Source of the DNA: Nitrosopumilus sp. | Lineage (GTDB): Archaea > Thermoproteota > Nitrososphaeria > Nitrososphaerales > Nitrosopumilaceae | DNA length: 64,000 nt | Direction of reading: 5' to 3' | Assembly (NCBI GenBank): GCA_965197525.1 | Contig: OZ240211.1 | Coordinates: 1,888,001 to 1,952,000, forward strand | Shown here: positions 62,599 to 64,000 of the stretch, one piece after another | Layout of the letters: every line of letters begins with the position of its first letter | How positions within the stretch are numbered: position 1 is the stretch's first letter | Translations under genes and position numbers: made by a program | Notes under the pieces: model-generated | What the model saw: the letters and a program-made list of their open reading frames with translations, nothing else | Database searches by the model: none | Told to the model about the DNA's origin: nothing

Positions 62599-63756
62599 AT
62601 TACTATCAAAAAATCAAGCCACGCAAAAAAGTTCGGAAAGCTGATCTTTGATGATGGCACTGTTATTAATGGGGAAGGTTTTGGCTATTCTACAACCGTT
62701 TTTGGCGAGATTGTATTTAATACTGGTATGGTAGGGTATACTGAAGCCCTAACTGATCCATCATACAATGGCCAAATTCTCACATTAACGTACCCTCTGG
62801 TTGGAAATTATGGGGTACCTGATCCATCCGTCATAGATGATTCCGGTATTCTGGCATTCTTTGAGTCTGACCGAATCCAGGTTCGTGGTCTGGTAGTTCA
62901 CGAACTATCTCTTACTGCAAGTCATTGGAATCTCTCCATGACTCTGGACCAATGGCTCTACCATGAACGAATCCCTGGAATCTCTGGAGTCGATACACGT
63001 CAATTAACAAAGAAACTCAGGACAGGGGGTGTGATGATGGCAGCTCTTGCCGTCTCTGATACGGAGATAGATGTAGATAAAGTAAAGACACAGCTCCAAT
63101 CTGCCACTCATTATGATTCAGAACAATTCATGGATATAGTATCAACAAAGCATGCGCGAACTTTTGGAGATGGCGACAAGTCCGTAGTTGTCATTGACAC
63201 TGGTGCAAAGAATGCAATCTTGCGAAATATTATAGATATTGGTTACAAAGTAATATTACTCCCTTGGAACACTACATATGAGAAGATAATGTCCTTTAAT
63301 CCTCACGGTGTAGTGCTTACTAGTGGTCCAGGCGATCCTCAAAAATGCCCTGATACGATAACTACTGCTAAAAAGTTAATTGAGAATAATGTACCGACTC
63401 TTGGAATATGTCTTGGTGCACAAATTATTGGTATTGCAGGCAACACTGATACATACAAACTAAAGTATGGGCATCGTGGACAAAACAAACCATGTGTAAA
63501 TTTAGAAAATAATCAAGTGTATGTTACTAGTCAGAATCATGGATATGGAATAACACCAGAATCTCTTGCAAAATCTGACTTTAATTTATGGTTTACAAAT
63601 GCAGACGATAAAACAGTTGAGGGAATAAAACACAAGACCCAAAACTGTATTGCAGTCCAGTTTCATCCAGAAGCTGCACCAGGTCCTTATGACTGCAAAT
63701 TCGTCTTTGAAGAGCTAAAACATCTTATGGAGGAAAAAGCAACTGCCAAAGAATGA
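62599..63756 (+). CDS. carA: carbamoyl-phosphate synthase small subunit; true start upstream of the ATG at 62728, probably non-canonical
   Basis: In-frame GKLIFDDGT...GEIVFNTGMVGYTEALTDPSY, GICLG, SQNHGY and QFHPEA motifs. Confidence 0.93.
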   Translation: MTIKKSSHAKKFGKLIFDDGTVINGEGFGYSTTVFGEIVFNTGMVGYTEALTDPSYNGQILTLTYPLVGNYGVPDPSVIDDSGILAFFESDRIQVRGLVVHELSLTASHWNLSMTLDQWLYHERIPGISGVDTRQLTKKLRTGGVMMAALAVSDTEIDVDKVKTQLQSATHYDSEQFMDIVSTKHARTFGDGDKSVVVIDTGAKNAILRNIIDIGYKVILLPWNTTYEKIMSFNPHGVVLTSGPGDPQKCPDTITTAKKLIENNVPTLGICLGAQIIGIAGNTDTYKLKYGHRGQNKPCVNLENNQVYVTSQNHGYGITPESLAKSDFNLWFTNADDKTVEGIKHKTQNCIAVQFHPEAAPGPYDCKFVFEELKHLMEEKATAKE

Positions 63757-64000
63757 GTCGTTAAAAAAGATTCTTGTACTTGGAAGTGGGGCCATTAAAA
63801 TCGGAGAAGCCGGCGAAAGTCGCTAAAACGACCGTCAATTTGACTACTCCGGAAGTCAATGCCTCAAGGCAATACACGAGGATGGACTGAACAGTGTTTT
63901 AATCAACCCAAATATTGCCACAATCCAGACTGATACTAGGTTTGCAGATCAAGTGTATCTTCTGCCTGTAAATGCAGAGTATGTAGAGTCAATTATCGAA
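63743..64000 (+). CDS. carB: carbamoyl-phosphate synthase large subunit, 5' part, interrupted by a 21-nt insertion with an in-frame TAA
   Basis: (CTG)PKNESLKKILVLGSGAIKIGEAGE|FDYSGSQCLKAIHEDG...LINPNIATIQTD; absent from the ORF track. Confidence 0.92.
63818..63838 (+). other. candidate bulge-helix-bulge mRNA intron in carB
   Basis: GGCG/CGTC central helix, AAA and AAT bulges, GTCG/CGAC intron stem; removal restores GGC GAA TTT GAC TAC. Confidence 0.8.

Follow-up and report, generated by a model that had tools for sequence, protein, structure and literature searches.

How can carB, the essential gene for carbamoyl-phosphate synthase, be expressed when an invariant motif of its protein is interrupted by 21 nt with a stop codon in frame? 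The window analysed here (the whole stretch of 64,000 nt, G000:C1:1888001-1952000) lies within a complete, single-contig genome of 2.21 Mb from Nitrosopumilus, a marine ammonia oxidiser, and the question arises at its very end. Read from the sequence, the carB frame runs from (CTG)PKNESLKKILVLGSGAIKIGEAGE through AGTCGCTAAAACGACCGTCAA into FDYSGSQCLKAIHEDG..., with the insert lying between two exons. The reading frame around it is ATC GGA GAA GCC GGC GAA, then the insert with an in-frame TAA at 63824-26, then TTT GAC TAC TCC GGA. Translation straight through the insert would give IGEAGE-SR(stop)NDRQ-FDYSGSQCLK, splitting the CarB motif IGEAGE/FDYSG. The 931-codon remainder of the frame is intact. 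No second carB was found in the genome, and no further copy of the 21-mer occurs in the 2.21 Mb with up to three mismatches allowed. The features around the insert are as follows.

62728..63756, + strand: carA, glutamine amidotransferase small subunit, upstream in the same operon (open reading frame, aligned relatives and the X5 RNA contig)
63743..63817, + strand: carB exon 1, 25 codons, (CTG)PKNESLKKILVLGSGAIKIGEAGE, read from the sequence, with a putative CTG start
63818..63838, + strand: candidate BHB intron AGTCGCTAAAACGACCGTCAA, 21 nt, absent in the X5 RNA contig and present in X1 and X3
63839..64000, + strand: carB exon 2 (FDYSGSQCLK...), running past the window to G000:1955013

Around the insert, G000 has genes for a CdvC-like AAA ATPase and a metallophosphoesterase, besides carA and a small ORF without a Pfam hit. 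No homing-endonuclease gene lies in or beside the insert in this neighbourhood, and the insert itself is too small to have any coding capacity. The answer argued for below is that 63818-63838 is very probably a bulge-helix-bulge (BHB) intron, spliced from the carB pre-mRNA by the endonuclease EndA and the ligase RtcB.

Archaeal splicing endonucleases cut after the second nucleotide of each bulge of a BHB motif, and the RNA around the insert can be folded into one, with the following parts.

63801..63809, + strand: distal exon-exon helix, 5′ strand (UCGGAG plus AG), pairing with 63844-63852 (RNAalifold consensus)
63812..63815, + strand: central 4-bp helix, 5′ strand GGCG, in exon 1, pairing with 63833-63836
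63816..63818, + strand: 5′ bulge of 3 nt, AA-A, read from the sequence, with the predicted cut after the second nucleotide
63819..63832, + strand: intron hairpin GTCG/CGAC (63819-22 with 63829-32) and its 6-nt loop CTAAAA (folding, covariation and RNAalifold)
63833..63836, + strand: central helix, 3′ strand CGTC, at the 3′ end of the intron (sequence, alignment and RNAalifold)
63837..63839, + strand: 3′ bulge of 3 nt, AA-T, read from the sequence, with the predicted cut after the second nucleotide
63844..63852, + strand: distal exon-exon helix, 3′ strand (CU...CUCCGG), in exon 2 (exon comparison and RNAalifold consensus)

The central helix GGCG/CGTC includes one G-U pair, and the core of the distal stem joins CGGAG (63802-06) to CTCCG (63847-51). 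Two 3-nt bulges therefore stand on opposite strands with 4 bp between them, each bulge lying 3′ of its helix strand, which is the arrangement that defines the BHB class. Of the two flanking helices, the one on the intron side is present and covaries; the one on the exon side starts past an internal loop and not at the 3′ bulge, so the carB motif is relaxed rather than canonical. The initial annotation had given the position of the insert, its TAA and all of these pairings, and had called the motif relaxed on account of an unpaired exon pair beside the central helix; each of these is present in the sequence exactly as claimed, and the relaxed reading was correct. Cutting at the predicted sites would yield the joint GGCGAA/TTTGAC and restore IGEAGEFDYSG, and this is the same joint as is found in the X5 RNA contig.

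The fold by itself lies within chance. BHB-like motifs number in the thousands when this genome is crudely scanned. The weight of the argument rests on the restoration of the motif, on conservation at the same site with covariation, and on the RNA contig. Minimum free energy folding of the single sequence (63795-63860) gave z = -1.33, with 20 of 200 shuffles folding equally well; its register is partly different, and it was set aside as uninformative for or against the model. A genome-wide scan of G000 for further mRNA BHB introns, in which a BHB motif was combined with an ORF-rescue test and filtered on coding potential and start codon, turned up no second convincing case among some 3,500 raw candidates, 43 of them left after filtering. 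The filters also discarded carB itself, so they are not trustworthy.

Beyond the single fold there is the distribution of the insert. Of 401 sampled Nitrososphaerales genomes, 345 have a site that could be recognised, and 226 of these 345 carry an insert there. By family, it occurs at 99 of 105 recognised sites in the Nitrososphaeraceae, 71 of 112 in the Nitrosopumilaceae, 40 of 63 in family f10 and all nine in family f4; none was seen at the recognised sites of families f7, f9, f12 and f14. Nitrosopumilus itself has it in 11 of 46, and the 23 Nitrosopumilus relatives with a match either carry it at the exact site (6) or lack it precisely (17). Named carriers are Nitrosarchaeum, Nitrosotenuis, Nitrosotalea, Nitrososphaera, Nitrosocosmicus and Nitrosopolaris, and none was found among named records of Bathyarchaeia. 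Outside the Nitrososphaerales, just one of 336 sampled Thermoproteota genomes has an insert at the same site, 19 nt long (locus L182). In the 82 loci that were fetched, the insert measures 17-52 nt, about half of the lengths are not multiples of three and most contain an in-frame stop, so the inserts could not be translated through. The variants of L072, L078 and L080, all from Nitrososphaeraceae, are 38-52 nt long and have an AT-rich, extended hairpin loop with no coding capacity.

Four carB loci are filed under distant taxa, namely L049, L102, L111 and L113, from metagenome-assembled genomes labelled Heimdallarchaeota, Acidoferrum, Nanopelagicaceae and Bacteroidota. Their carB products are 61-83% identical to the Nitrosopumilus CarB query and rank among the Nitrososphaerota and Bathyarchaeia matches. 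L049 has the insert and clusters with the Nitrosopumilaceae in the CarB tree. All four are likely binning errors.

What is conserved in these inserts is the structure. Irrespective of insert length, the BHB rule works in 82 of 82 loci, with 3-nt bulges and a central helix of 3-4 bp. When the model was applied to 77 distinct sequences (alignment A1), 95.2% of cells were paired, against 86.6% in shuffles, none of 500 of which reached the observed value; sliding the pairing partner on the same sequences gave at most 56%. The central helix alone is paired in 95.5% of cells (77 sequences), and the covariation score reaches 0.335, where slid partners give no more than 0.128. In the intron helix, changes on both sides are seen at five of six aligned pairs, with variants that include GUCG/CGAC, GCCGC/GCGGC, GCUGG/CCAGC and GUUAG/CUAAC. 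RNAalifold, which is free of the model, arrived at the same intron helix and 3-nt 5′ bulge; its consensus also has three of the central pairs and, between the exons, a helix of 8 bp interrupted by one mismatch. Compensation is also seen in the central helix, where GGCG/CGCC becomes GGUG/CACC in L032 and GCGG/CCGC in L182, the latter because the exon there reads GCG GAA. L182 (G601:C70:1906-1947) belongs to another family, and its insert reads A GGCC TTAA GGCC CCGC AC.

The exons bear the mark of the same structure. Exon 1 contributes one strand of the central helix and encodes protein at the same positions, so that synonymous codons are fixed. GGC encodes the Gly in 66 of 67 intron-bearing genes as against 5 of 42 intron-less ones, and all 5 bp of the distal helix CGGAG/CUCCG can form in 66 of the 67 but in only 7 of the 42. 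This comparison of codons indicates that RNA structure constrains the flanking synonymous positions only in genes that have the insert.

Is the insert real DNA, and is it missing from RNA? Four public runs were compared with G000:1951600-1952600. An 8-kb contig of run X1 keeps the 21 nt and is 100% identical over 1001 nt save one base; a contig of run X3, covering 1951683-1951981, also keeps them and shows zero differences. Both are runs of one and the same labelled organism, and their longest contigs (69.8 kb in X1, 43 kb in X3) mark both as DNA. The insert is thus genuine DNA and no assembly artefact. Run X5, from a sponge library recorded as METATRANSCRIPTOMIC RNA-Seq, supplied one 545-nt contig that reads from the 3′ end of carA into carB. 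It matches G000 at 97.8% identity, with 12 mismatches and one gap, and the gap is exactly the 21 nt; since AA stands before both cuts, the excision point can be placed only to within two bases. This evidence consists of a single Logan contig, whose source is a close strain and not the G000 strain itself, and contigs cannot give the unspliced fraction. Moreover, intron-less strains with intron-type flanks are known from long genomic contigs (L150), so the source of the X5 contig could be one of these and mimic splicing. Run X11, likewise recorded as RNA-Seq, yielded contigs from relatives in which the insert is retained; it is probably DNA and was rejected as evidence on splicing.

Metagenome (JGI) contigs were also scanned for the joined form with intron-type flanks, which gave 32 matches. 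Most of these were discarded as bacterial or other archaeal carB, or as long genomic contigs of intron-less lineages. Four contigs, L168, L171, L174 and L180, carry an insert-free carB of Nitrososphaeraceae type and come from two sister data sets. Over 2763 nt, L168 (IMG sample 3300010152) and the locus of a Nitrosocosmicus metagenome-assembled genome (L081) are 98.3% identical, the sole gap being the 32-nt insert of the latter, and L180 matches L082 at 90.6% with the 26-nt insert as its only gap. In the Nitrososphaeraceae the intron-less form occurs in only 5 of 121 genomes, all of one genus and with different flanks. By this pattern, the four contigs look like cDNA of intron-bearing Nitrososphaeraceae, which would fit splicing and is supportive of it.

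The genome encodes the enzymes that such a reaction would need. Two EndA-family genes of 178 and 196 aa, 29% identical, each contain PF01974 and PF02778 (N-terminal and catalytic-type domains).

G000:1992148-1992681, - strand: EndA with a catalytic Tyr...His context (GIDHAPFLI)
G000:633321-633908, - strand: EndA paralogue with Lys in place of the catalytic His

Judged from their residues, the two would be the catalytic alpha and structural beta subunits of a heterotetrameric splicing endonuclease, as in the expected pattern. Acceptance of relaxed motifs has been tied to hetero-oligomeric EndA (PMC2738675 and PMC5829648), and the (alpha-beta)2 and epsilon2 forms are named as the enzymes that accept relaxed BHB motifs (PMC5829648). 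There is one gene for the ligase RtcB. ARAGORN predicts some ten tRNA genes with introns, which measure 14-126 nt. Among its other calls are a tRNA-like gene with a 4-base anticodon (tccg) at G000:918756-918828 (-) and a tRNA-Asp with anticodon ATC at G000:1960237-1960323 (-).

The initial annotation had proposed a BHB intron excised at exactly 63818-63838 by a heteromeric EndA, and had expected it to be visible as RNA lacking these bases, as compensatory helix changes in relatives and as an insert that is no artefact of assembly. Comparative, structural and RNA evidence now support that proposal. The paralogue pair was found; RNA without the insert was found in X5 (one contig, from a 97.8%-identical strain); the DNA contigs of X1 and X3 keep the 21 nt; and the compensatory changes are those described above for the intron helix (5 of 6 pairs) and the central helix (GGUG/CACC and GCGG/CCGC).

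On this basis, splicing of carB might proceed as follows. In the carA-carB transcript, GGCG of exon 1 would pair with CGUC at the 3′ end of the intron to form the 4-bp central helix and its two 3-nt bulges. The intron hairpin would close one side of this motif and the exon-exon helix, a few nucleotides off, would close the other. A putative (alpha-beta)2 EndA, made up of the catalytic and the structural paralogue, would cut after the second nucleotide of each bulge, and RtcB would presumably join the exons into GGC GAA UUU GAC, restoring IGEAGEFDYSG. The released intron may be circular. Spliced CarB would carry the predicted junction peptide IGEAGEFDYSGSQCLK, and on unspliced mRNA translation would halt after 27 codons.

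The age and loss of the intron can be gauged from the same genomes. Its distribution argues that it is old, being common to the Nitrosopumilaceae, the Nitrososphaeraceae and other families of the Nitrososphaerales, and that it has been precisely lost several times, including in most Nitrosopumilus species. A CarB protein tree requires 12 changes of intron state, at least seven of them forced by supported branches; the tree is poorly resolved within Nitrosopumilus, and gain and loss are inseparable in it. Four metagenome contigs, L150 (43.8 kb long), L152, L156 and L173, have an intron-less carB of Nitrosopumilaceae type that retains the intron-associated codons (CGGAGAAGCnGGCGAATTyGAyTACTCCGG). 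To judge by these codons, they would seem to have lost the intron recently and precisely.

Two further irregularities set this copy of carB apart and have to be considered before rival explanations are weighed. At the position of the start codon it has CTG (63743), where intron-less relatives have ATG or TTG, and no ATG, GTG or TTG occurs in the carB frame downstream of the stop at 63716. The CTG is common to all six intron-bearing Nitrosopumilus relatives examined; intron-bearing lineages elsewhere start with ATG, TTG or GTG. In intron-bearing Nitrosopumilus, carA has also lost its TAA and overlaps carB by 14 nt, ending here at TGA 63754-56. Together, the CTG and the overlap suggest a non-canonical start or coupling by termination and reinitiation. 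The second irregularity lies 222 nt past the window, where an extra base at G000:1952222 (L002:2222) gives TTTGATGGATGC in place of the TTTGA-NGATGC of relatives and splits carB into two frames. The X1 contig, otherwise identical, is without it, so that it is probably an assembly consensus error. If the frameshift and the CTG were both real, this copy of carB might be decaying.

That last thought can be carried further, with carB as a decaying pseudogene, the stop in the insert, the CTG and the frameshift as its lesions, and the X5 contig as the product of an intron-less strain. Three irregularities do fall inside 500 nt of this assembly, the X5 contig does differ at 12 positions, and intron-less genomic contigs with the same flanks do exist. 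Such decay is nonetheless scarcely credible, given that carB is single-copy with its remaining 931-codon frame intact, that the near-identical X1 contig lacks the frameshift base, and that each of the six intron-bearing Nitrosopumilus relatives examined has both the insert and the CTG. In fact, decay cannot be the origin of an insert found in 226 genomes with a covarying structure. Equally, the insert might stay in the mRNA and be skipped by the ribosome, which is known to hop over part of the message in gene 60 of phage T4, or it might be removed by some other RNase and ligase. A stable hairpin with a stop codon directly after a Gly-Glu codon pair does resemble bypassing elements, and the link of EndA to the site is drawn from sequence. 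Against hopping, the X5 RNA contig is physically without the insert, as are the JGI contigs if they are cDNA; the take-off and landing codons are unmatched (GAA before the insert, UUU at landing); and the conserved features are those of a BHB (3-nt bulges, 4-bp spacing, a cut after the second bulge nucleotide) and not those of a hop signal. As for another nuclease, the searchable literature holds no other archaeal RNA-splicing pathway, and EndA is named for all archaeal introns (PMC7714728). Both of these variants are very improbable, and a BHB intron spliced by EndA and RtcB is the reading carried forward here.

If that intron is spliced, its removal could conceivably also be regulated, and the initial annotation had suggested a checkpoint of this kind. 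The intron would then gate CarB, and hence arginine and pyrimidine supply, through EndA/RtcB or through competition between ribosome and BHB, in the manner of XBP1/HAC1. Order-wide and very long retention with frozen exon codons would suit such a role, as would a position 25 codons into carB, where translating ribosomes would upset the fold, and the weak CTG start in this clade; there is also the analogy with a 26-nt, RtcB-ligated mRNA intron, IRE1 splicing being named in PMC13149111. However, at least seven changes of intron state have passed without visible consequence, only 11 of 46 Nitrosopumilus have the intron, frozen exon codons are expected of any obligately spliced intron whether regulatory or not, and other intron-bearing lineages start with ATG, TTG or GTG. 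Regulation of this kind is speculative and unlikely. A wider proposal, in which the intron is a conserved post-transcriptional gate (set by EndA/RtcB capacity or by a race between ribosome and BHB), the footprint of a mobile BHB intron homing to the invariant GE/FDYSG site in distant archaeal phyla, or both, is unlikely as well.

A spliced carB intron would matter for several reasons. No published carB intron was found in the searchable literature, in which subscription journals are thinly covered, and the intron is apparently unpublished. With cbf5 standing alone in that literature, carB would be the second archaeal protein-coding sequence with an endonuclease-spliced intron. The place of this intron in central metabolism, in another lineage and in most ammonia-oxidising archaea would mean that archaeal pre-mRNA splicing is no one-gene curiosity, and these archaea are globally important nitrifiers. 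The initial annotation had expected automated pipelines to call the gene a pseudogene; it is plausible that carB has been called as truncated, split or pseudogenised across hundreds of genomes, and a miscalled carB would distort metabolic reconstruction, for instance by implying a false arginine or pyrimidine auxotrophy. The many natural variants also form a data set for the substrate rules of EndA, for intron loss, and for the mutual constraint of coding and RNA structure.

Among known systems, the closest is the cbf5 pre-mRNA intron of Crenarchaeota, reportedly described by Watanabe in 2002 and Yoshinari in 2006. It lies in a gene for a pseudouridine synthase and is of the short BHB type (Yokobori 2009, PMC2738675); Nitrosopumilus and Cenarchaeum are without it (Yokobori 2009, PMC2738675). 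Like the cbf5 intron, the candidate in carB is a short BHB type inside a protein-coding sequence, with the relaxed motif that is usual in cbf5, a link to hetero-oligomeric EndA, and patchy, precise, lineage-specific losses; the cbf5 intron is also mis-annotated by gene callers. The host gene, the site and the lineage are all different, and there is no sequence relation, so that the class is shared and the family is not. Unlike the cbf5 intron, whose site is common to Desulfurococcales and Sulfolobales, the carB intron is order-wide and sits in an invariant motif 25 codons from the start. A BHB intron has also been reported in the 5′UTR of the HVO_1309 mRNA of Haloferax volcanii (Schwarz et al. 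2020, PMC7714728), at which time cbf5 was the sole other mRNA BHB intron known (PMC7714728). Both HVO_1309 and, presumably, carB are mRNA substrates of the tRNA splicing endonuclease; the former differs in being untranslated, so that no reading frame is interrupted, and in belonging to a euryarchaeon with a homodimeric EndA that needs the canonical BHB.

The candidate intron also resembles the BHB introns of archaeal pre-tRNA and pre-rRNA in its 3-nt bulges, its 4-bp helix, its predicted cuts after the second bulge nucleotide and its size range, and differs in its mRNA host, where the exonic strand of the central helix has to encode protein as well. Beyond the archaea, XBP1 and HAC1 carry small introns (26 nt in XBP1) that are removed without a spliceosome by a structure-specific endonuclease and an RtcB-family ligase. 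There too an intron lies in an mRNA and its cut sites are set by RNA structure; the endonuclease, however, is unrelated, the motif is one of two stem-loops, and splicing is a stress-regulated switch of frame. Should the splicing of carB turn out to be regulated after all, it would be an archaeal counterpart of XBP1/HAC1 splicing.
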